Positions 2,543 to 34,540 of a stretch of 64,000 bases of DNA are shown piece after piece; the stretch's first letter is position 1, and each line of letters starts with the position of its first letter. Source of the stretch: a virus; the IMG/VR virus record IMGVR_UViG_3300045988_154248; one strand, 5' to 3'. The notes beneath the pieces are model-generated. The model saw only the letters and a list, made by a program, of their open reading frames with translations. It was not told the origin of the DNA and ran no database searches. The position numbers were made by a program, and so were the translations under genes.

Positions 2543-5500
2543 ATGGGATTAAATGATGCGTTGACAAAACAAGCATTATCTCTTGCGAATGACGCTGGTT
2601 TATATCAAAAAGCTGCGGCAGGTAATCTTACATTTAGTAAGGCTATAGAATTAAATATAAATAATGCAAGCGATTTAGTTGATGCCTTGATGAGTAGTAA
2701 TTCTGAAGTCTTAAAAAAATATAAAGATAACGATATTGCTGATATGATAGCTAATTCAGGTGAAAAAGGCAGCGCGGCATATAATGAGTTTGTTAAAGAT
2801 CTCATCGATAAAAATCAAGATTTAGGGGACTCAATCGTTGAATTAGCACCCAAAGTAGAAACTACAAAATCCGCATTTTCTGGTTTATCAAACTATTTTA
2901 AAGGACTTTTTGCTACATTTACAAATCCGATTTTCCTTTTAACGACAGCCGTTACCGTAGGGGTTGCGGCATGGCAAGGCTATAACCAATCTGTCCAGGA
3001 ATCCATCCAGCACACGAAAGACTCAATAGCAGAAATAGAGGAACGTAATAAGTCTATTGACGACAATATCAGTAAAGCACAGGAACTAAGGGATTCCCTT
3101 GATTCCGGTACTCTTACAGAGCAAGAAGCTTATAACACGAAGAGTCAATTGCTTGATATCCAAAGTCAATTATCTGATTCTTATGGAGAACAGGCGGATG
3201 GAATTGATCTGGTAAATGGTAAGCTGGATGAGCAGATCGAGAAGATGCAGCAGCTCAAAGTTGAAAATGCGAAAAGCTGGCTGAATGATTCGGATAATGA
3301 GAAGAATTACGAAAAAGCTAAGAAGAAGATGACCAAAGATGATTATGAGTCATTCTTTGGAAATACACCTACTTTATCTTTACTTGGTAATGCACCAGAA
3401 AAAGCCGACTATACAAATTCAGACGTATATAAAGATGCACTGAAACGTTATCAAAATAGCAAATCCCAGATCGAAGAAATCCAGAAAGCAGCAGAAAAAG
3501 CCGGACTAAAACAGTATACAAGTACAAGCACAGGTCAGTTCCAGCTTGGTTTTGAAAATGAAACAGTAACAGGAGCAGATGAAAAATTAAACTCCTTCCT
3601 CGCTACTGTTAAAGAACTGAAACGGCAGTTTGATGATGAGGGTAAAAATACTGATTACTTTGATAATATCATCAGTTCCGCCGAAGATGCCGAATCTTCT
3701 TATAAGGATATTTTAGACAAGCATCAAGAAGTATATCAAGAGTATCTGAAAAACTCCATGCTTGCAGAGGGTTATGGTAATAATAAGCCAGCCACAGTAT
3801 ACCAGCAATATGCGGATGCTGTAGATAAATATAATGAAGCCCTGCAAAGTGGAGATACATCTAAGGTCGAAGCAGCGAAAACTGCATTAGATGGCGTAAA
3901 AGATTCCGTAGATAATATTGTCAGTAGAGATTCCGGAAAAAAATACAAGGAACTGTTTGATGAGATTGCAGATGGTATTGACACAGCATCCGAAAAAACT
4001 TATGAGTTCAAAGAACGCTTATCCGGTAAAGGTACAGATAAATTAAACAATACTGTGCTTTCTAAGCTCAAAGAGTTGAAGAATTACACAGATATTGACC
4101 TCAAGAGTATCAATCTTGATACAAGTGATGTTGTTGCTGGTAAAGATGCTCTACGCATGGCAGTAAACGAAGCAATGGATCTTGACATTGTTTCCGATGA
4201 TTCTGCTGAAAGTGTGGCAAAAGTTGTTGATCTCTTAACGGATATGGGTATGACGGCAACCGTATCCATGAATCAAGTGGATGATTCCTTCTCAGAAGTC
4301 AATACTACCATTCAGCAAGCACAAGCAAATCTGGAAACGCTCAAGACGATTATGTCTGAATCTGTTTCGGGAGCAGGTATTTCTGCCGATAATGTGAAAG
4401 CATTTAAAGAAATGTTCGGAGATGATGCTGCGCGTGCTTTGGAGAAAACCGCAGACGGTTACCATATCAATCGTGAAGAGCTTGCAAAATTACAGGCGCA
4501 ACAGTCAGAAATGAACAAAGCGGATTATCTTTCCGGTTTGGCAGATCAGCAGGAAGCTCTGAGACAAATCGAGGAGCAGATCGCCGATGCAATGGTAAAA
4601 GGTCAAGATGTCAGCGGCTTACAGGCACAGCGCGAAGGTATTTTGGATAATATTTCCTCTCTGGAGGATCTAGCATATCAGTATCAAACTGCTACTTCTG
4701 CTTATCAACAATGGCAGGATGCTATGTCCGGTGGTGAAGAAGGTAATATGTATGATTCCATCCAGGGTAACATGGAATCCATCAAAGATCTCTACGACAA
4801 AGGACTTGTGGGAGAAAACAAATTCCGAGAGTTTGTTGACCTTATGTCCAATAAGGATCTGACCAATGCCAGTGTGGATGAAATCGTTGCGGCTTATGAA
4901 GAATCCTATCCGAAGATGGAACGTTATTTTACAGAAGGACAGGAAGGATGTCAAGCATTCTTACAAGATATATCCAACCTTAATTCTGAATGGGCGCACA
5001 TGAATGAAGATGGTTCATGGGAGATTAATTTCGGAGTCGGAAACGATCAAGAGATTGCGGATGCATTAGGAATTGATGTGGAAGCTGTACAATCAGTACT
5101 AAGAAAACTGCATGATTTTGGCTTTGACATCGACCTCGATCAGCCGGTTAAATCTTTGGAACAACTAAAGACAGAAGCTCAATCAGCCAAAGAAGCTCTT
5201 GATGGAATGGGTGAAACTTCTCTTGATAGCATCAATTTGGACACAGATTCATTCAGTGAAATCACAGATGATATTGACAAGGTTAAGGAATATATTCAGC
5301 AGATCAATGATGCTGATTTGGAGCCAGAAGTTCGGACAGAGAGACTGGAGCAAGCCAATAATATTCTTGATTATCTGGTACAGAAACAGCAAGAGGCTGG
5401 ACATACAGATATTATCATTGATGCGGATGCAAGTTCTGTCGATCAAAAGATCTCTGATCTGAAGAGTCAACTGGAGCAATTCAGAAACGAAGACGGTACG

Positions 5501-8220
5501 ATTCCTGTTAATGCCGATACACAAGATGCTGTCAACAGTCTGCAATCTTTGTATGCTACGAAGCAAAATCTTGAAAATACACCAGCTATTCTACAGGTTG
5601 ATACTTCGCAGGTTGACGGAGAACTGGGCAATGCGATCGGAAAATTACAGGAATATCAGAATGCTGTAGAGATTCTGAATGCACAGAACACGATGAAAAC
5701 ACAGGGCATCGACATTGATACCACAGATGCACAGCAGAAAGTACAACAGTTGGCAGGACAGCTACAGAATCTTGATGCTGATACGACAGCAAAGTTAGGT
5801 CTTGACGATACTGATTTTCAGTCGAAACTTTCTAATATTGCTACTCATCCGATTGATGTAGGAATAGGGGTAAATCTTGATCCGAATGCTCTTGCCGACG
5901 TCTCTGCAAAGATTTCTGGAATTACGCCAGAATTACTTGTAAAAGCTGGTGTAAACGAAGAGGCGATTGTAAATTATACGCCGAAAGATAAGGACGCTAC
6001 GGTCAAATACAAAGTTGACCATAGTGCGATTGACAGTTATGATCCGGAAGACAAAAATGCTACGGTTACTTACGGTGTGGTTGTTTCTGGACTTGAAAAT
6101 CTACCAGGTAATAAAACAAGAAGTCTGACTTACAATATTAAGACTAATGGTACGGCTCCAAAAGTAAATGGTACGGCACATGCTATAGGAACAGCTCATG
6201 CGGCAGGTACTGCAAGCCGTAATTGGGGGCTTGCTCACAATGAACCACATGCGCTTGTAAATGAATTGAAACCAGAAGCAATCGTTCGGGATGGTAAGGC
6301 GTTTATCTTGAATGGCGGAGATCCTACTTTTGCAAATCTGAAGAAAGATGATGTTGTATTCAACGGTGATCAGACGGAGCAGTTGCTTGAACATGGTTAT
6401 GTTACCGGTTCTCATGCACAACTTGCAGGTGGTGGTTATTCTTTAGGTAGTGCGTTCTCTGGAGGATCGGGAAGATTTAATGTTGGAAGTTCTGGAACAA
6501 AAGCTGATTCTTCCACATGGGAAGACGAAAAGAAACAGAATAATACCAGCCCTAACTCATCTTCTGGTAGCAGTAGTCGTAAAAACAGTGGATCATCTTC
6601 TGGTGGTTCAACTCGATCACCTTCCGGTGGAAGTTCTGGTGGCTCTTCATCCTCTTCTGATGCAAAGTCAACAACAGAAGAAGTAGTTGATTTTATCAAA
6701 ATTATGCTCTCCCGTCTGTCCCGTATGACAGAGCTTGCAACTAATGCAATCGAACGTGCAGTAGGTCTTGCAAATAAACAAGCAGCCGCAGCAGATGCAA
6801 TCGGTAAAGCAACGAATGAAATGGTTCATAACCAACGTGCAGCAGATGCTTATTTGGCAAAAGCTAATAGCATTAGTTTGTCTGATGCTTATAAGAACCA
6901 GATCATGAATGGTAGTATTAATATAGATACCATCACAGATGAAGATCTGAAAAAGAAAATTAGTGACTTCCAAAGCTATTATGAATCTTACTTATCTGCA
7001 AGAGACAATGCGTTAAAGCTCGAAGATAAAATTACCGAACTCGCTGAAAAACGTCTGGAAATCATTGAAAAAGAATATGATGCGATCGTAGACATCAACG
7101 ATGCGATAAAAACCGTAGCCGATTCCAAAATTTCTCTCAACGATGCGCTGGGCGTGGCGATTGACAATCCAGACAATTATGCTAATCTGAATAATTCAAT
7201 CAAAGCACAGGAAGATACTTATAATCAGCTGACGAAAAAGCTTTCCGATTATCAGAAAGAGATGGAGTCTCAACTTTCCAGCGGCTTGATGCAAAAGGGT
7301 TCTGATGCCTATAATTCTGCGCTAAAAAATATTCAAGATTTTACAGCTAAGATTTATGATGCTTCTACCAGCCTTCTTGAACTACGGGATAAATTGGATC
7401 AGATTAAAATTGATACTATCCAGAATGTAATTGACGGAATCAAACGTAATTCGGATATTACGGAGAAATATATTTCTTACCTGCAATCTCAGAATCGTGA
7501 TGTGCCAGAGAATCTATACACTGACCGTATAGATAATAATAACGCTCAGGTACAGCAGAATCTAAAGCAGATGGAAATATACCGGAAGAAACAGGCGGTT
7601 CTTGATGTCAATTCTAAATCGTATCAAGATTATGCAGAAAAGATTCAAACGCTAAAAGAAAATACTTTGGAACTGATTACGGACAATGAATCTCTTCAAG
7701 ATAGTATCTATGAGCTACGATTTAAGCCACTTGACGATGCTATCCAGAAGTACAGTGACCTTGAAGATGAGCTGAAAAGTTTCCGTGACCTTCTGAATGA
7801 TGATGCATTCCTTGATAAGCAAGGACGTATCACGGAAGATGGATTGGCACAGATTGCTCTCTTACAACAGAGTATTGGTACGGCAAAACAAAAAATTGCA
7901 GATTATACCACGGGCCTGCAAAAACTAAAAGAGTCTTATGACAATGGGGTTATTTCCTTAACGGAATATAATGACAAGTCAAAAGATTACCGTGAAGGTA
8001 TTCAAGGTTCGATTGCAGATGTGAAATCATATCAGGACAGTCTGGTTGATCTGTATAAGAATGCTATGAGTACAGAGGTTGATTATCTAACCTCTATTGT
8101 AACGAAGAGACAAGAGGCGCTTCAAGCAAAAGCTGACTATTATTCCTATGATAAATCAATATCCAAAAAGAGCAATGATATTAATGTTATTAAAGCACAA
8201 ATCATGGCTTTAGAAGGGGT
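2543..8220 (+). CDS. tail tape measure protein, exon 1; frame is open upstream to 2342
   Basis: Very long coiled-coil-rich ORF with a TM segment (NPIFLLTTAVTVGVAAW), directly upstream of Dit and Tal. The exon ends at U8220, the group I 5' splice site. The track ORF reads 6 codons into the intron. Confidence 0.85.
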
Positions 8221-8561
8221 GAAATATTTGCTCCTATAAAATCTATTTAATTGCGGGAAGTCCCCATAAGGTTTAATTGGCTACAACGTAACCAGAAACG
8301 GTAGGCGTGAATGCGGTAGAGTTTTAAACTTACAGTCCATTATTAGATAGAAACCATAAAAATAATTAAACTAGGGATAACCGAGTGTGCAAGTCACTCA
8401 GACGCAGCGAACTTCCTAAGTCAGAAATGATATGGAAGACGTTCAGAGACTAACCCATATTGGGTGGCGCAATGCCTTAATGGAAGACTGCAAGCGATTG
8501 GCGGTCGAAAAAATATAGACTATTTGAATATTAAGTGATATTATAATTTTGAGGTGTGTTC

Positions 8562-8577
8562 TTTCCTATAATTAGTG
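8562..8577 (+). promoter_or_regulatory. promoter-like element containing TATAAT, copy 1 of a duplicated 16-mer
   Basis: tttcctataattagtg matches 8793-8808 at 15 of 16 positions. Confidence 0.35.
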
Positions 8578-8792
8578 ATGAACAGATAGAACACAGTGTA
8601 GATACAACCAAAGAGACTCTCGAACACACATATGAGAGAAGTAAGTAGAAGAAAAGACAACGAAATAGAACAATAAAGAAGATTGTGCAAGTTTGTAGAA
8701 GTTATACGAACCATCGTTCGCATGTTTGTGAATTTTGCGAATAGATTTTTCTCTTGGGATTGCATATAATAAAGTCAAGAAAACCGTAAAGT

Positions 8793-8808
8793 TTTCTTAT
8801 AATTAGTG
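8793..8808 (+). promoter_or_regulatory. candidate toxI-toxN promoter -10 region (TATAAT 8798-8803), copy 2 of the 16-mer
   Basis: tttcttataattagtg lies immediately 5' of the first antitoxin repeat. Confidence 0.45.
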
Positions 8809-8906
8809 GTTACGAAGCCATAAAATCGTATTAATAGATGTTACGAAGCATGTAAAAAATCGTATTAATAGATGTTACGAAGCATGTAAAAAATCGTATT
8901 AATAGC
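8809..8906 (+). ncRNA. toxI: type III antitoxin RNA array (ToxI/antiQ-like), about 2.9 tandem repeats
   Basis: Head-to-tail units at 8809-8839 (31 nt), 8840-8873 (34 nt) and 8874-8906 (33 nt) have the form gttacgaagcatgtaaaaaatcgtattaatagat. There are no spacers. A terminator and then toxN follow. Confidence 0.8.
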
Positions 8907-8930
8907 GGAGCTGGTTACAGCTCCTTTATT
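8907..8930 (+). terminator. intrinsic terminator between the antitoxin repeats and the toxin gene
   Basis: Hairpin ggagctg-gtta-cagctcc followed by tttatt. This is the position of the attenuating terminator in ToxIN loci. Confidence 0.7.
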
Positions 8931-8946
8931 ACTATTAGGAGAAAAT

Positions 8947-9507
8947 ATGAAGTGGATTAATGTAGACGAAAAGTATACAGATTATCTTAGAAGTCACGAA
9001 GGAAGAATTCCTATGACCAATTATGGCACAGATAAATACAAGCCATTTTTCGGTGTGCTGTTTGAAACAAATGGTTTGTATTATATTACACAGGTATCAC
9101 ATCCACGGGAAAAACATAAACGCTTGACACAACAAAAAGATTTTTACAAAATATTTGATCCAGATAATACAACAAGATTAATAGCGGTTGTTAATCTTAA
9201 TTACATGTTCCCAATTCCAAAAGAATGTACAAGTGCATTTGTTAAAAAGAATATAGGAACATATCGTACATTTAAATCAGAGAAAGCAAAAAGTCAATAT
9301 ATTAATTTGCTTGATAAAGAATTAAAAGTAATCAATAAAATGGATTTAGGAACAAAAGCATTGCAGTTGTATCATTTAAAATATACAGATCCTAACAGTA
9401 CCGTTTCAAAAAGATGTATTGATTTTAAGGATATGGAAAAATGGGCAAAGTTATATATTGAAACGTTAAATAATACAGAAACTACAGAACAACCCAAGGA
9501 GCAGTAA
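8947..9507 (+). CDS. toxN: type III toxin, ToxN/AbiQ-family endoribonuclease
   Basis: 186 aa, with SD AGGAG before ATG 8947. Recalled ToxN/AbiQ blocks match: MKWINVDEKYTDYLRSHEGRIP, KPFFGVLFETNGLYYITQVSHP, IAVVNLNYMFPIP. Size and repeat-terminator-toxin context also fit. Confidence 0.85.
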   Translation: MKWINVDEKYTDYLRSHEGRIPMTNYGTDKYKPFFGVLFETNGLYYITQVSHPREKHKRLTQQKDFYKIFDPDNTTRLIAVVNLNYMFPIPKECTSAFVKKNIGTYRTFKSEKAKSQYINLLDKELKVINKMDLGTKALQLYHLKYTDPNSTVSKRCIDFKDMEKWAKLYIETLNNTETTEQPKEQ

Positions 9508-9525
9508 ATCTACTGCTCTTTTCTT
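9499..9525 (+). terminator. intrinsic terminator overlapping the toxN stop
   Basis: Stem gagcagta/tactgctc, loop aatc, then ttttctt. Confidence 0.7.
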
Positions 9526-9650
9526 ATACCTCAAATCTTAATTACAATCCCTCAAATAAAATTCAAATAGAAGATATAGTCCCATGCCATACGAAAGTAT
9601 GGGGAGCAGTTATGCTCTTGTCCACGTAGCGAGTGGATGAAAAGAAAATG

Positions 9651-11142
9651 AAATAACCTCGATGCTCAATCTCAAGTTAAGAAATTGAAGCAACAGCTTT
9701 CAGAAGCAGAGCAAGATTTAGCCGATACTAAGCGTGACCATGCAAATGATATGCAGTCTCAAGGTTACGATAAGCTCAGTGAAGATCTGAAAACTTCTCT
9801 TGATGATACCGAGTACGAAATTAGTCATAATGCTGACAAACAGCTTGAGATCATCAATTCTATGCTTGACAAAGCCGTGTCCTCTTATCAAGAAGCATAT
9901 GGCAAAATCAACTCTATCATCAAAAATACTGGCTGGGTAGGTAGTACGGATTTTAACAATACCCAGTCTGATCTAAGCACAGAGACAGGTGTTAAGAATC
10001 AAAATTCCAACGCATCACAGTCTCAGTCCAGTGCAAATAAAAATCCATCCAGTACCGCATCTGGTACAAAAACTGATCCAATCAACAGTAATTCAAAAGC
10101 AAACAGTGATCTTGCGGATCAATTAGTTAAACCGGAAGATACAACGAATCGTAAGGTTGCGGAACTAAAGGTGTCTCCTACTTCTACTACACTGAAAGAG
10201 GGTAAATCCACAAGTATTACTGCTACAATCAGACCGAACGATGCAGCTAATAAGACTCTTGCTTGGAAATCAAGTAATGAATCCATTGCTACTGTATCCA
10301 ATGGTACGGTAAAAGCAAAGAAAGCAGGTTCCTGCACGATCACTGCTACTACTACTGACGGCAGCGGTTTATCTGCGAAAGTATCTGTTAAAGTCAATGC
10401 GAAACCAAAACCACCAAAGCCACAGCCGAAACCACAACCAGCAAAAACTGGTGGAGATGGAATTCCTCGTGTTGGCGATGTCGTAACGTTCACAGGATCT
10501 TATTATAATGATTCCTGGGGTATGGCTCCAAAAGGTAGTAGATTTTCCGGTCAGCCTGGTGCTGTTGTTATTGACTCTTACACGGCTAGGGAATATGGCG
10601 GAAATGGACGTACTACTGGTGATTTTAAGATCCATATCAAGAGTGCGCATGATCCTAATTATAGTGATCTTGGATGGGTGCGTCTTAGCCAGATTAGTGG
10701 TTATGAAAAGGGTACGGATCGTATTCATGGTGATCAGCTTGTATGGACAAATGAAAATAAAGACACCAAACATCATGGCGTTTCAGAATTAATCTATCGC
10801 AAGAAAGATGGTGCTGTCCTTACACCTGTTCAAGATGGAGATTCTATTCTACCAGCAGATTTTGTAAGTAATTTGATTAAATTAAGTGCAATTGATCCTA
10901 AAGAATTCGGTATGAATGTAAGTACTACGCCAAATCTGGTACAGACGAACATTCCTCAAAATATCAGCAATGTTGGAAATGTAACGGTAAAAAATCATTA
11001 TGATTCATTACTCACAGTTGAAGGTAATGTTGATAGGGATGCTCTGCCTGGATTACAGGAAATTCTTGAAAAGTCTTATCAGTATACAAGTAAACAGATC
11101 GTGAAAGATGCAAGAAAAGTTGGTATTAGACCATCAAGATGA
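9651..11142 (+). CDS. tail tape measure protein, exon 2
   Basis: The frame is open from 9652. Joining gt (8219-8220) to a (9651) gives GTA and continues ...ALEGV/NNLDAQSQVKKLKQQL. Exon 2 contains an Ig-like (Big_2-type) segment and a KPKPPKPQPKPQP linker. The two exons total 7170 nt, divisible by 3. Confidence 0.85.
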
Positions 11143-30123: not shown

Positions 30124-31608
30124 TTACGCTTTTTTATTATTTTTCTGTATTTTTAGATACGTTTCAGGATATCTGTATTGTAGTATATTCATGGCTTTTA
30201 TCATATTTTTTTCTATTACGTGTACCATACCCTTTAATTCGCTATATGAAATATAATCGCTGTCAATTTGATCGACAATATATTTTATTTTATCGACCCA
30301 ATAATCCTCTATTGGTTTTTCTTTTGTTTTAATATACTTATAGCATTGTGGCATATAATAAAAATCATTTCTTCTGATGTCTTGACAAATTTGTTGCATG
30401 AAAGCATTAAATCCTCCTACAGTTAATCTTCTAACTTTGTCAGAATTCTTAAAATATAAGTCAATATAATATTCAATTTTAGGATAATACTTTTTATCTA
30501 ATTCAGAATACCTCTTTCCTTTAGGCGGTATATTCCTACTGCTACTATGTGCATAATTTTGGCTTATTATTTTTTGTTTTTCAACTTCATATTGACCGTT
30601 AATTATTTTACTTACATTACAAGGTAAAATATGATATTGTTTTGCAAGCTTGTTTATGCCGTTATCTTTTGTATACTCTGATCGAATTCTTTCGACTAAT
30701 TCCGAATCAATTTGTTTCGCCGTTTTGCATACAAAAATATCAGATATTTGTATATCTAAAAATAATAATATATGAATTGTTCTAAGTGGATTCGCTTTAT
30801 TTGAAAATATATCTTGCATTTTCTTAATCTGAGAATTCTTTTCTATACTATTCTCTAACAAGTATTGTTCAAAATCATTAATAAATGCTGACTTATGTTG
30901 TAGCCACGAAAGTTGATTTATATACCGTTTTTGAATTAATTTTTTATAGAATACATCAAACATCGTAATACCGTTTTTAAGACTCTGTTTTCTTACTACT
31001 AATTGATATAGGTATTTTGCGGTATTTATTTCACCGATGGTTCCCATATTATACGAATAATCATCATCAATACAATTTTCAGCTGCATGAAAATTAATTA
31101 TTCTTGAATTATTAACATTAATTGACGAATCTTTAAGTTTACATCCGTGAATTACACAAACATTAATTTCTGGAATTTGATGAAAAGCATTCCAATATGT
31201 TTCGTGATATTGCTCTCTATTTTCTTTTGCACATAATGGACAATATTTTAGAAATATTTTTTGATGTTTATGTTTTGGTCTTAATGGAAGATATTCTGTA
31301 AAACTCTTGTCATTTGATATGAACTTTCTCAACGCATCTTCTTTGTTTGATTTGTTTAAAAATAAAGACCAATAGAAAAACATAGTGTGATTATAATATA
31401 AATCATTAACTATATAATTTTTCGACATAAAGGAATACAATGTGTCACTCGGTTCATTCACATAAAATATTTCGATGTATTCATGCGGTTGTTTAAACAC
31501 GATTTCTTTAAAAGATTGATTATTCTGTACATTTATATCTTGTTTCAATCTTGAATACACGCTATAGAATAATTCATGTTCATATATTTTTGGAAAGTAA
31601 TTTATCAT
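30124..31608 (-). CDS. tniQ: TniQ/TnsD-family target-selection protein
   Basis: N-terminus FPKIYEHELFYSVYSRL is the TniQ signature. A zinc motif CPLCAKEN...CVIHGCKL is present. The start overlaps tnsC by 4 nt. Confidence 0.7.
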   Translation of the reverse strand: MINYFPKIYEHELFYSVYSRLKQDINVQNNQSFKEIVFKQPHEYIEIFYVNEPSDTLYSFMSKNYIVNDLYYNHTMFFYWSLFLNKSNKEDALRKFISNDKSFTEYLPLRPKHKHQKIFLKYCPLCAKENREQYHETYWNAFHQIPEINVCVIHGCKLKDSSINVNNSRIINFHAAENCIDDDYSYNMGTIGEINTAKYLYQLVVRKQSLKNGITMFDVFYKKLIQKRYINQLSWLQHKSAFINDFEQYLLENSIEKNSQIKKMQDIFSNKANPLRTIHILLFLDIQISDIFVCKTAKQIDSELVERIRSEYTKDNGINKLAKQYHILPCNVSKIINGQYEVEKQKIISQNYAHSSSRNIPPKGKRYSELDKKYYPKIEYYIDLYFKNSDKVRRLTVGGFNAFMQQICQDIRRNDFYYMPQCYKYIKTKEKPIEDYWVDKIKYIVDQIDSDYISYSELKGMVHVIEKNMIKAMNILQYRYPETYLKIQKNNKKA

Positions 31609-32810
31609 AATTCTACCTCTTCTACAGTAAAAGTATTTTTAATAAGAGTTAAAAGATTACAATTATTAGACTGCGAATGATCATACAAATTCGCAATACT
31701 AATTCCGTCTGGATGTTTAATTATTATATTTTCAACGGGTTTCTTCATGGACGATTTAATCTTTTTTTGTATTCTTTCTGGATGCATGGACGCCGTTTCA
31801 TTATATGATGCATTGAAAATATTAATGTTTAATTCTTCTGTGCCACTCATAATAGCTAGTTCTTGAGCCTTGTAGAATAGCGATACAACCGTTGACGTTA
31901 CTCCATTAGAATGTGAATATAACCAATTTATAAGCTTCTCAGATGGTTCTGTATACTGCTGTACATATTGAAAATGCAACAACTTATTACAGAAATGTAT
32001 AAAAGCATCATCGTAATCCGTTTGTAGATATCGCAATCCAATTGTCCTTCTCTCTAAATGAGGAGCGCTTTCGAACCAATGCAAACATTCCGGTGTTCCC
32101 ACCATACAGATACTAATTCCGCTGCTATTGATGATTTGTGTCAACGATCCAATAAGCTTTTCGCCATTTTTATTGTTGACAACATTCTGAATTTCGTCAA
32201 CAATTAATACGCCAACATGATTTAAACATATTTGACTAACAAAACCAATCAGTCTATCTATTGTATATCGTTGTGCTATTTGCAAATAATCTCCGTCTAG
32301 TGTAGCATCAAGAATACGAACAATTTCTAATAACAGACTTTTTACAGATGAGTCAAATGGGCATTGTACGAGTATAAATGGAGCAATTCTTTGGTACGGA
32401 TCAGTTGTTTCAATAAATTTGTTTCCAGAAATCAATGATATTGCTCTGGTAATAGCACTACTCTTCCCTATGCCAGAAACTCCAATGATTGTAAACGAAT
32501 CAGCACCACCTATAATACCATTATACGTTTGTATGGTGTTTGTTGTATTTTCGATTCTTTGCTGTTTTACCATCATATCATTTTCTTTTTTCTTAATCGA
32601 CCTGAGTAATGCCATATACAATTTATTATATACATCAACAGATAATTGTGATGGAATATAAATATCATATAATTCTGATAACGCCAGAAGACGAGTTGGC
32701 ATTGTTTCATTGGCAATGTTTATATTATAGTTTGGTAATATCTGCAATTGATTTATCAGCTTATCGCCACATAAAAAATCAGGCAATTGTGAAAGTAATT
32801 TACCGTTCAT
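31605..32810 (-). CDS. tnsC: TnsC/TniB-like AAA+ ATPase
   Basis: Walker A GVSGIGKS and Walker B VLIVDEIQN. Operon position lies between the transposase and tniQ. Confidence 0.75.
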   Translation of the reverse strand: MNGKLLSQLPDFLCGDKLINQLQILPNYNINIANETMPTRLLALSELYDIYIPSQLSVDVYNKLYMALLRSIKKKENDMMVKQQRIENTTNTIQTYNGIIGGADSFTIIGVSGIGKSSAITRAISLISGNKFIETTDPYQRIAPFILVQCPFDSSVKSLLLEIVRILDATLDGDYLQIAQRYTIDRLIGFVSQICLNHVGVLIVDEIQNVVNNKNGEKLIGSLTQIINSSGISICMVGTPECLHWFESAPHLERRTIGLRYLQTDYDDAFIHFCNKLLHFQYVQQYTEPSEKLINWLYSHSNGVTSTVVSLFYKAQELAIMSGTEELNINIFNASYNETASMHPERIQKKIKSSMKKPVENIIIKHPDGISIANLYDHSQSNNCNLLTLIKNTFTVEEVEL

Positions 32811-34540
32811 CTTTTAACTCCTCCCCTAGCAATCAATTCAATCTCATTCATCAGATCAATCTTCGCCTGTCGTGCATTGATTTGTTCAGAACGTAGTGTT
32901 GTTTTGCTCTGTTCTTTGATCTGTTCCACTTCATCCAATTTTCTATTCTTATATCTGCTTTCAACCAATTCAAAAGGAATAAACTCGCCCTTCTCTACTG
33001 TCCATACTACAGATACATCATCTGGATCGTAAGCAACCTTAACATCTCCACCTTGCAGGAATCTTTCGGCGCAATCATCCCGTTTATACCGCATCCCATT
33101 TACCACTAGACCACGCCTAGTGAATGTCCCAATGGTACGTGGGAGCAGATATAGGATTATTTTCGCGGTGTCATGCGGGAATGGAATTAAATTTGCGCCT
33201 GGTTGCTGTCTTCCCCATTCCCATATACTGGCTGCATATGGCTTTACTCCGTCTTCGATCATGGATTGTGTGTAAGGGAATCTTTCTATGAGCCGTTGGC
33301 TGTTGTAGTAGATAATACAACGCAGGATGATCTTTTCGAAATCAAACATTGTCAAACAGGCATCCAATCTGTAATCTCTTGCACCTCGTTCTTGGAAGTC
33401 TGGATCAATCACGCCTTTACCCTTAAGAAGAGGTTTATACATGGATTGAATGATGTCAAAGAATTTCTCTACTGCTCCTTTTAACTCTGGCCTGTAAGGT
33501 GGAAGATTTACCATAGTCACACCTGTTTCTGTAATCTGTGCAAAGGATTCTGAAGTATACTCGCGTCCCATATCTGTTACAAAGATAGCTGGCAACTCTT
33601 GCACGTTCCACTGGGATTTTTCTAGTGAGATGCCGAACTTTCTACACCATTCTGTTTTGTCTGTAAGGATATTTTGGAGCAGATGACATAAACTCTTTGT
33701 ATCGTTATTCCATGAGAGAACATAGCCATAACACATACTGCTGTAAGCATCAATACAAGTAGTTAGGATCGGGCGACCTTTTAAGGTTCCTGTCTCGTCT
33801 ATGAGGTAGATGTCACATACAGTTGAATCGAACATACCCGTCCCTATGTTGGTTGCAAACTCACGGATACCATCTCCTAGCAAGGGACGATTGTTCCGCT
33901 GATAATTTGACAGTCCATCTCTGGAAATATAATAAGTTTGGAGCTTCTTGGTTTTCCGGTAAAAGTATCGAAACTGATAAAAGGATGGATGATCGGATAG
34001 TAACTGTCCCATGCTGTCACAATACTTTTCTTTCAGCATCATCTCATATGCTGTAACAAGACTGTTTTGTCTGCGTGTATAGAAGAACTTATTCAATGCC
34101 CATCTCATGTTTTTCTCATCTTTAGTCAGTACCTTTTCTTTCGTATGAACTTTTGGTGCAAGTACAGTGACGGTCTGAAAGATTAGATACTGATACAGAT
34201 AGCGGCGGATGGTCTGCTTACTAATGTTATGCTCCTCTGAGATGGAAGAGATGATGTTTGCAGTTGCTGTACTGTCTCCTAAGTGGTACAGGATTGGTGC
34301 AATCAGAGTGTATCTCTCATGCGCAATGCGCATTTGATCAGATGTAAGCTCCTGTTCGGCTGGTGGAGTGATGTTAAGCGCGTCATATAAATGCTTCTCT
34401 GGCAATGGGGTATATTGCGTTCTGAGCGTCCAGAATGGCATTTTCGGATGGAGACAGTCAATTACAAGGGTCTGGTTATCTGATGTCTTTAAAATTCTGT
34501 AGAACGTGTTATTGATATAGGCTATTTCAGCTTTCTGCAT
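32807..34540 (-). CDS. tnsB: TnsB-like DDE (rve/Mu-type) transposase
   Basis: N-terminal HTH region. DDE contexts are STVCDIYLID, IFVTDMGREY and LKGAVEKFF. A Mu-transposase-like C-terminal region follows. Confidence 0.8.
   Translation of the reverse strand: MQKAEIAYINNTFYRILKTSDNQTLVIDCLHPKMPFWTLRTQYTPLPEKHLYDALNITPPAEQELTSDQMRIAHERYTLIAPILYHLGDSTATANIISSISEEHNISKQTIRRYLYQYLIFQTVTVLAPKVHTKEKVLTKDEKNMRWALNKFFYTRRQNSLVTAYEMMLKEKYCDSMGQLLSDHPSFYQFRYFYRKTKKLQTYYISRDGLSNYQRNNRPLLGDGIREFATNIGTGMFDSTVCDIYLIDETGTLKGRPILTTCIDAYSSMCYGYVLSWNNDTKSLCHLLQNILTDKTEWCRKFGISLEKSQWNVQELPAIFVTDMGREYTSESFAQITETGVTMVNLPPYRPELKGAVEKFFDIIQSMYKPLLKGKGVIDPDFQERGARDYRLDACLTMFDFEKIILRCIIYYNSQRLIERFPYTQSMIEDGVKPYAASIWEWGRQQPGANLIPFPHDTAKIILYLLPRTIGTFTRRGLVVNGMRYKRDDCAERFLQGGDVKVAYDPDDVSVVWTVEKGEFIPFELVESRYKNRKLDEVEQIKEQSKTTLRSEQINARQAKIDLMNEIELIARGGVKR

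Follow-up and report, generated by a model that had tools for sequence, protein, structure and literature searches.

Organization of the interrupted tape measure gene

The 64,000-nt stretch of viral DNA analyzed here (IMG/VR record IMGVR_UViG_3300045988_154248; hereafter the window) contains a tape measure protein (TMP) gene that is split by a group I intron, and the P8 loop of this intron carries a predicted type III toxin-antitoxin (TA) module of the ToxIN/AbiQ kind. Coordinates are positions in the 64-kb window; Lnnn and Pnnnn denote related contig loci and related proteins, respectively. A sequence-only reading of the window had proposed the intron and its splice sites and overlooked the 186-amino-acid (aa) open reading frame (ORF) and the 34-nt repeats inside it. 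The gene is organized as follows.

2543-8220, plus strand: TMP exon 1, 1892 codons plus 2 nt, ending ...GAA GGG GT (ORF call and splice arithmetic)
8221-9650, plus strand: group I intron, 1430 nt, consisting of a ribozyme of about 400 nt and 1031 nt of P8-loop cargo, with omega-G at 9650
9651-11142, plus strand: TMP exon 2, starting A AAT AAC CTC; 497 codons including the split V codon, then the stop

The TMP ORF (2543-8239) ends at the TAA at 8237-8239 and resumes at 9652 in a different frame, as the sequence-only reading had claimed. Ligation of 8220 to 9651 yields 7170 nt with one terminal stop, encoding a 2389-aa protein with the junction peptide ...IMALEGVNNLDAQSQVKKL...; the exon sequences that abut at the ligated junction are TTAGAAGGGGT and AAATAACCTCGATG. 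Residues 1501-2389 of the spliced TMP were searched against a collection of 5.8 billion proteins, and the 113 matching proteins fell into three classes: those continuous over the junction (P0001 at 84% identity, P0004 at 89% and many at about 55%), exon-1-only proteins ending 1-3 residues beyond it, and proteins of about 495 aa beginning 11 codons into exon 2. More than 40 of the continuous homologues are free of gaps over the junction and read ALEGVNN(L/A/S), the predicted ligated peptide. The DNA of an intron-less close relative, L067, runs uninterrupted through the site. Exon 2 has no Shine-Dalgarno-preceded start near 9652, and its first candidate start is TTG 9685, 11 codons in. Because the homologues are continuous, L067 is uninterrupted and exon 2 lacks a ribosome-binding site (RBS) or start of its own before TTG 9685, the TMP is predicted to be encoded by a single, interrupted gene.

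An intein was rejected for want of in-frame continuity, and a frameshift was rejected on account of the 1.43-kb gap. A search of viral contigs with the ligated-exon sequence returned only two 18-nt chance matches in an unrelated gene. The L067 contig resembles an inverted assembly. Exon-1 fragments of the TMP in some relatives (L005:6001-8199, P0054) have precomputed matches to Pfam Tubulin PF00091, which is odd for a TMP; these may be spurious coiled-coil matches.

Architecture of the intron core

The structural elements of the ribozyme, all on the plus strand, were assigned as follows.

8215-8235: P1, AGGGGU 8215-8220 with the guide GCUCCU 8230-8235; 6/6 pairs, with a U8220.G8230 wobble at the splice site
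8225-8229: P10 5' strand UAUUU, pairing with exon-2 AAAUA 9651-9655
8242-8246: P3 5' strand, pairing with 8515-8519; C-G to U-A and A-U to G-C compensations
8252-8442: P4-P6 domain (RF00028 half-match and pairing counts over relatives)
8252-8257 with 8403-8406 and 8381-8382: P4, its 3' strand interrupted by the hairpin 8383-8399
8261-8264/8374-8377: P5; 8270-8278/8364-8372: P5a (pairing counts over relatives)
8407-8408/8441-8442: P6; 8412-8416/8434-8438: P6a (pairing counts over relatives)
8446-8452: P7 5' strand, G8446, bulged A8447 and GACUA 8448-8452, pairing with 9577-9582
8453-8465, 8466-8476 and 8486-8506: P7.1, P7.1a and P7.2 (our own labels), covarying peripheral hairpins between P7 and P3'
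8515-8519: P3 3' strand, pairing with 8242-8246
8520-8529: P8 5' strand CUAUUUGAAU, pairing with 9561-9570 and closing the cargo loop
9561-9570: P8 3' strand; 9571-9576: J8/7 AAGAUA; 9577-9582: P7 3' strand UAGUCC (RF00028 half-match and pairing counts)
9587-9602: P9 (GAAA loop); 9604-9617: P9.1; 9620-9638: P9.2 (invariant loop GUAGCGA)

These assignments bear out the elements that the sequence-only reading had read directly, namely P1 with its U.G pair, P10, the intron-terminal G at 9650, P8 (10/10 pairs in the window), the candidate P3' at 8515-8519 and additional hairpins between P7 and P3', of which there are three at 8453-8506. The core strings that it had matched to well-known introns are likewise present (AATTGCGGGAAG at 8249, CGCAG at 8403, AACTTCCTAAGTC at 8410, GTTCAGAGACTAA at 8441 and AAGATATAGTC at 9571), and each of the four long ones occurs once in the window. 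The J8/7 and J3/4-P4 consensus sequences are present, and AAUUGCGGG and AAGAUAUAGUC align to the RF00028 consensus. The stop codon of the exon-1 frame (TAA 8237-8239) lies directly 3' of P1. The intron presumably belongs to subgroup IA of the Michel-Westhof classification.

The loop of P7.2 is invariant (AAGCGAUUG). The hairpin at 8383-8399 (5 bp, conserved loop UGCAAGU) occupies an unusual position for a peripheral element; it is kept in introns of the window type and absent from shorter sister introns of the endonuclease type.

Covariation among related introns

Metagenomic and viral contigs were the source of related introns, in which profiles served to locate the two halves of the core (5' and 3'); removal of the cargo then gave an alignment of 13 distinct mini-introns. 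RNAalifold alone recovered P1, P4, P6, P7, P8 and P9-P9.2, with compensatory changes in 29/77 pairs. We also wrote out the full structure, including the P3/P7 pseudoknot and P10, and counted its 94 pairs. Across the 13 introns, 95.5% of cells were paired, compared with 37-42% when the 3' partners were slid by 1-3 columns. Changes on both sides were found in 39/94 pairs, compared with 4-13 after sliding and 16.9±2.7 after shuffling, and the observed value was reached in 0/500 shuffles.

Every core helix, including P3, P4, P5, P6a, P7 and P8, had at least one compensatory change. Double changes occurred in 4/6 pairs of P1, in 5 pairs of P8 (for which 100% of cells were paired across the relatives) and in 10 pairs of P9-P9.2, and the G-C to A-U change in P7, a helix that RNAalifold found independently, was present in 5 sequences. 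The P10 guide covaries with exon 2, reading AUCAUU/AAUGAU in L005 and CAUUAUUU/AAAUGAUG in L004.

A search against Rfam had been suggested as a check of the intron. The curated threshold was not reached, and a focused permissive scan gave two sub-threshold half-matches to RF00028 that flank the cargo (8211-8543, 19.7 bits; 9494-9603, 27.6 bits). The threshold is presumably missed because the 1031-nt insertion in P8 splits the core into these half-matches. Compact homologues pass it (82.2 and 66.9 bits in L014, 51.8 bits in L013), and the intron-family profiles match the Rfam-certified compact intron of L014 (82.2 bits). The group I assignment, including the exact splice sites, is thus supported by covariation, by intron-less homologues and by compact relatives that pass Rfam. 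L013, an unrelated viral contig, also has a match above threshold to the Rfam RAGATH-18 sRNA (54.5 bits, L013:6714-6774), about 1.5 kb downstream of its group I intron.

The predicted toxin-antitoxin cassette in the P8 loop

The 1031-nt P8 loop contains the following features, all on the plus strand.

8530-8794: cargo leader, 265 nt; 89-92% shared with L020 and L001, which carry a different gene
8748-8770: promoter-like box TTTCTCTTGGGATTGCATATAAT, 23 nt, within the leader
8795-8905: ToxI-like antitoxin RNA array, 34 nt x 2.9 copies, tandem direct repeats upstream of toxN
8907-8930: terminator-like hairpin GGAGCUGguuaCAGCUCC, 7-bp GC-rich stem at 8907-8924 followed by UUUAUU (pattern match only)
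8947-9507: toxN, 186 aa, with the RBS AGGAG at 8937-8941
9499-9525: conserved hairpin GAGCAGUAaaucUACUGCUC, 9499-9518 followed by UUUUCUU; it holds the toxN stop codon (9505-9507) and forms the 3' boundary of the cassette

The toxN product matches Pfam ToxN_toxin PF13958 over positions 1-159/159 (5.8e-43; 147 bits against a cutoff of 25), PADLOC AbiQ (5.5e-21) and the ToxN structure 4ATO (3.5e-8), as well as 2XD0 and 7D8O. In the alignment with 2XD0 the lysine at K33 is kept, and T52-S53-P54-K55 is aligned to S-H-P-R. The array comprises a degenerate copy at about 8795-8821, perfect copies at 8822-8855 and 8856-8889, and a 16-nt partial copy at 8890-8905; a focused Rfam scan gave no ToxI match to it. 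Because tandem repeats, a terminator hairpin, an RBS and a full-length ToxN are arranged in one operon layout, the cargo is predicted to be a complete type III TA (ToxIN/AbiQ) module. ToxN is the only substantial same-strand ORF in the intron of the window, and no DNA endonuclease was found there.

The array is polymorphic in copy number (2.9 versus 1.9, exactly one 34-nt unit) among L070-L077, whose introns are otherwise 99.5-100% identical, which suggests ongoing slippage or tuning of the antitoxin dosage. A similar cassette is present in another intron at another TMP site (L017), with a ToxN 58% identical to that of the window, 68% DNA identity over 703 nt and an upstream array of 31-nt units that shares the motif AAAAYCGTATTAATAGAGGTTA. 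Free-standing toxIN loci with homologous arrays occur in three large viral contigs (L064-L066), which have an equivalent of the hairpin 8907-8930 and no intron core within 3 kb. By our reading, the TATAAT at 8765-8770 would line up with the -10 element of the putative TGTGTATAAT promoters at these loci. The box TTTCTCTTGGGATTGCATATAAT occurs only once in the window and hence does not represent a promoter that recurs there. No terminator was called by the scan at the hairpin 9499-9525.

On the opposite strand, the leader holds two small ORFs, 8541-8765 (74 aa) and 8572-8778 (68 aa), and it also contains a terminator-like hairpin at 8707-8720.

Exchange of cassettes at the same codon

In related phages, this TMP codon is interrupted by an intron of almost the same sequence but with different cargo. 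The intron core of L003 is 95-97% identical to that of the window, but its cargo is PBECR4. In L020 the first 283 nt of the loop are 89% and the last 74 nt 100% identical to those of the window, with a TenpN-like gene in place of toxN. Other introns carry a CptN toxin (L041; NCBIfam, 165 bits against a cutoff of 90), an NYN nuclease (L005, L016 and L063; PADLOC HEC-09) or DUF3990 (L002; PADLOC PDC-M13), and in sister introns the P8 position is occupied by HNH+NUMOD4 or zinc-finger nuclease-like ORFs.

A census anchored on exon 2 covered 59 human-gut and viral metagenome loci, of which 20 are intron-less and 30 have a complete intron at this codon. Their cargo was classified as follows; the classes overlap, one NYN and one TenpN intron also carrying an endonuclease.

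PBECR4: 8 introns
TenpN family: 7 introns (two above the curated cutoff)
NYN: 6 introns
Homing endonuclease only: 4 introns
ToxN: 2 introns
Other: 2 introns
CptN: 1 intron
PemK/MazF: 1 intron

RNase-type toxins predominate in this census, and all three recognized type III families are present. Unrelated cargo ORFs share the C-terminal ending ...EQ*, and the TenpN of L097 shares the tail TTEQPKEQ with the ToxN of the window, because all these ORFs end within a single conserved hairpin, which supplies their stop codon; the 3' boundary of recombination is therefore located within the coding sequence. Tandem Repeats Finder and self-BLAST detected no tandem-repeat antitoxins upstream of the PBECR4, NYN, DUF3990 and TenpN-like cargos, and only TCAAATTAT-delimited units were found in L041 (CptN).

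Downstream of a TGTGTATAAT-type box, the PBECR4 cargo of L003 (8128-8557) and the PemK-like cargo of L024 (5620-6312) both contain the leader segment AAATCTGGTGTGATGCRGCGAAATGCGACYGCT, which may represent a regulatory or antitoxin RNA shared by the two cassettes. An intron at the same TMP site in L127 has a type of cargo unrelated to RNase toxins; its two ORFs, at about 385 and 673 of the intron, are one of 86 aa and one for a 179-aa retropepsin-like aspartyl protease containing a SEC-C motif.

Distribution, mobility and phage context

The index of the collection lists the exact ToxN protein in 270 blocks. In all of the places inspected (8/8), it is flanked by the TMP exons. The introns at those places are 99.5-100% identical to that of the window and come from at least 8 independent assemblies of different studies. 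The intron-less TMPs P0001 and P0004 are 95-100% identical to the window TMP, but only 47-68% identical over about 100 aa around the site. Such an exon mosaic is the pattern expected from exon co-conversion during gain or loss of the intron, presumably at the DNA level.

The intron of L072 (1706-4706) is compound: an endonuclease-type 5' core, a 499-aa ORF and a partial J8/7-P9 are followed by the toxIN segment, and its 3' part is 100% identical to 8508-9650 of the window, toxIN included. Analogous compound introns were found in L024 (3732-7064), L096 and L105. It is plausible that compound introns are recombination intermediates that let toxin cassettes hitch-hike on homing.

The compound introns have a duplicated partial J8/7-P7'-P9 and a second P3'-P8 containing toxIN, PemK-like, NYN or TenpN cargo, and hence two candidate 3' strands for P7. 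The TMP genes of this phage group have at least three alternative intron sites; L002 contains two introns at once (4542-6001 and 7873-9187), and among the introns at site B, L017 carries ToxN and L041 carries CptN.

The window also encodes tail proteins, an endolysin, a DNA polymerase, NrdD, an NAD-dependent ligase and transposase-like proteins. Megablast, blastn and tblastn searches of the region and the TMP against 50,697 GenBank phages (INPHARED) revealed no relative, only two short chance matches; the same phage search gave one weak ToxN match, in Clostridioides phage pCD1602_4. A scan of bacterial genomes found only distant (35-42%) TMP relatives in Lachnospiraceae. On the minus strand at 31605-34540, PHROG families for transposases and DNA-transposition proteins are matched by two neighboring genes; these may bear on the lifestyle of the phage, which could be transposable or temperate, or they could belong to an inserted mobile element.

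Proposed mechanism and alternative explanations

We propose that the TMP intron splices and that its P8 loop holds an exchangeable type III TA cassette, mobile among phages, with a role in exclusion, abortive infection or addiction; we put the probability of this reading at roughly 85%. It builds on the intron architecture, exact junction, cassette anatomy, cargo swapping and exon mosaic described above, from which we infer actual splicing, toxin activity and a biological role. The tail operon would be transcribed through the intron, and the P3-P9 core would fold with the 10-bp P8 stem uniting core halves 1031 nt apart. Guanosine-initiated splicing would then join 8220 to 9651 and give the 2389-aa TMP. 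The P8 loop would house a self-contained, same-strand cassette with a promoter-like box, about three ToxI-type 34-nt repeats, a leaky-terminator-like hairpin, an RBS and ToxN. By analogy with characterized ToxIN/AbiQ systems (PMC5772629, PMC3401426), ToxN would cut the repeat transcript into 34-nt units that bind and silence it, and would be freed once the ToxI supply ends. The intron would offer a phenotypically silent landing pad within an essential gene. Its cassette appears to be exchangeable, because an almost identical intron occupies this codon in related phages but encodes a different RNase-type toxin or a homing endonuclease, and the element probably moves between phage genomes at the DNA level, taking flanking exon sequence along. 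The phage or its lysogen may benefit from the cassette as a weapon for abortive infection or exclusion, or through addiction.

Several points weigh against this proposal. RF00028 had 0 matches in the window at its gathering threshold (50 bits), and a scan of the whole window at E<=0.01 also found none; self-splicing at 8220/9651 is deduced from sequence. Transcription of exon 2 would require read-through of the two terminator-like hairpins (8907-8930 and 9499-9525), and processing of the ToxI array by ToxN within the pre-mRNA would cut the intron in its P8 loop. A sigma-70 consensus scan revealed no convincing promoter for the cassette (4 sites, compared with 6.9 expected by chance), and independent expression of the cassette is therefore uncertain. 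Two of the aligned ToxN positions that we take to be catalytic differ (S-H-P here, T-S-P in 2XD0). The copy in the window has no homing endonuclease, which leaves its present mobility unexplained, and any benefit of an abortive-infection module may depend on the lifestyle of the phage, temperate or otherwise.

Among the alternatives, a real intron with a purely selfish toxIN is the most probable, though we consider it unlikely. Here the toxIN would be an addiction module that penalizes loss of the intron, of the cassette or of a plasmid-like or integrated prophage, with no defensive or competitive benefit. TA modules are classic stabilizers, and the stabilization of prophages by TA systems has been discussed (PMC12283969). 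Toxins of several TA types make up most of the cargo set, contigs with the exact ToxN extend up to the 0.2-1 Mb class, a size compatible with prophages, and the lack of a homing endonuclease in the window copy makes another retention mechanism plausible. However, ToxI acts in trans, so that in a mixed infection it would not discriminate between intron-plus and intron-minus genomes; the PBECR4, NYN and DUF3990 cargos have no recognizable antitoxin; and ToxN, NYN and DUF3990 match PADLOC models for defense or candidate defense systems. A quite improbable explanation is anti-defense, in which the ToxI-like RNA of the phage would neutralize a ToxN abortive-infection system of the host and toxN would be a captured passenger. 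Pectobacterium phage phiTE is said to have escaped ToxIN by acquiring or expanding ToxI-like repeats; the 2.9 versus 1.9 repeat copies among otherwise identical introns would suit a dosage-sensitive decoy, and free-standing homologous cassettes occur in related phage contigs. Against this, toxN is intact, full length and identical across hundreds of assemblies, and the sister cassettes are mostly toxins without repeats, so that a decoy role does not generalize.

It is very improbable that the insert is a non-splicing moron or a degenerate intron remnant and that the TMP is made as two separately translated polypeptides. Gene callers do give two ORFs in all relatives, and the Rfam threshold is missed; yet exon 2 has no Shine-Dalgarno-preceded start ahead of the candidate TTG, each helix of the conserved catalytic core shows compensatory changes, the guide follows changes in exon 2, and homologues lacking the intron match residue for residue in order. 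That one contig is chimeric in its assembly or contains a contaminating insertion was considered since the relative L067 looks inverted in its assembly, but nothing speaks for it. With the intron in the same context at 99.5-100% identity in the independent assemblies and the exact ToxN in 270 blocks, its probability is close to nil.

A broader claim, which we advance tentatively and at a little under even odds, is that the splicing, cassette-bearing intron of the window is one member of a hitherto undescribed class of gut-phage TMP introns. In this class the P8 loop would be a cassette slot for endoribonuclease toxins (the three type III families, MazF-like, PBECR4 and NYN), swapped through recombination at the shared leader and terminator hairpin and spread by occasional co-resident homing endonucleases. 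If so, the ribozyme would have been co-opted to shelter and transport the weapons or immunity genes of phages, toxin expression might be coupled to late transcription and splicing, and processing of the ToxI array in the intron by ToxN might feed back on the TMP mRNA.

A phage lineage common in the human gut thus appears to carry a complete toxIN module in the ribozyme loop of an essential tail gene. Standard annotation renders such elements as "two TMP genes plus a hypothetical protein". If the cassettes are functional, self-splicing introns would give phages a way to gain and swap toxin or immunity genes and to house them safely, and would constitute a new compartment of the phage accessory genome. 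The findings raise the questions of how splicing could proceed despite internal terminators and a self-processing array, whether toxin release is tied to late expression, and whether endonucleases mobilize the cassettes in compound introns.

Comparison with known systems

In the usual view, phage group I introns are selfish and carry nothing but a homing endonuclease, and type III TA systems are bacterial anti-phage defense. The introns of T4 td (I-TevI) and SPO1 (I-HmuI) carry a homing-endonuclease ORF in a peripheral loop. The intron in the window resembles them in its compact ribozyme with P7.1/P7.2-type hairpins, in the same-strand ORF looped out from a peripheral stem, in the stop of the upstream frame just inside the intron, and in the apparent exon co-conversion around the site. 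It differs in carrying a predicted RNase toxin and RNA antitoxin, with terminator-like hairpins of their own and a promoter-like box, and no DNA endonuclease. The intron-encoded nuclease gp210 of phage phiPA3, as Birkholz et al. reportedly described in 2024, acts against phiKZ in interference competition between phages. The cargo of the present intron is likewise conceivable as a weapon against co-infecting phages; gp210 is a DNA homing endonuclease that cuts a gene of the rival, whereas the candidates here are RNases that would be held by antitoxins. In IStrons, the cargo is a transposase/TnpB at the 3' end of the intron and confers mobility. The cargo in the window lies instead in the P8 loop and encodes toxins rather than mobility functions. 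As in IStrons (a group I intron plus an IS200/605-type element), which occur in Clostridia (PMC4227781), the ribozyme would make a module other than a homing endonuclease harmless.

Like the ToxIN and AbiQ-antiQ systems (PMC3401426, PMC5772629, PMC5086642), the cassette has a full-length ToxN_toxin domain, about three upstream 34-nt repeats, a putative terminator between the two and a single-operon layout. In contrast to those systems, which reside on a bacterial plasmid or chromosome, it lies in the ribozyme loop of a phage structural gene, lacks an Rfam ToxI match and has only 26-30%-level similarity to characterized ToxN proteins. A survey of tenpN published in 2025 (PMC12283969) states that type III systems had previously been unreported in phages, except for one Clostridium prophage; that paper deals with type III systems in viruses and never mentions introns. 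Searches of PMC open-access articles and bioRxiv returned no paper on a group I intron with ToxN, AbiQ, type III TA, PBECR or NYN cargo, and absence from these sources is not proof.

The sequence-only reading had regarded introns in tail structural genes as much less familiar than those in DNA-metabolism genes, a view that carries little weight: group I introns are documented at three sites (IVS1-3) in the TMP genes of B. cereus-group prophages (Tourasse & Kolsto 2008, PMC2504315), and the title of a report on Cluster J mycobacteriophages names introns in capsid and tail genes (PMC3706429). As in the B. cereus group, a TMP of the Firmicutes siphophage type is interrupted here at alternative sites (at least three in the present phage group); the introns described here belong to another phage lineage with no nucleotide similarity to the INPHARED phages, and the cargo of the intron in the window is a predicted TA module. 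The TMP intron itself is therefore of an already known type, and it is the pattern of its cargo, not the location of the intron, that is remarkable.

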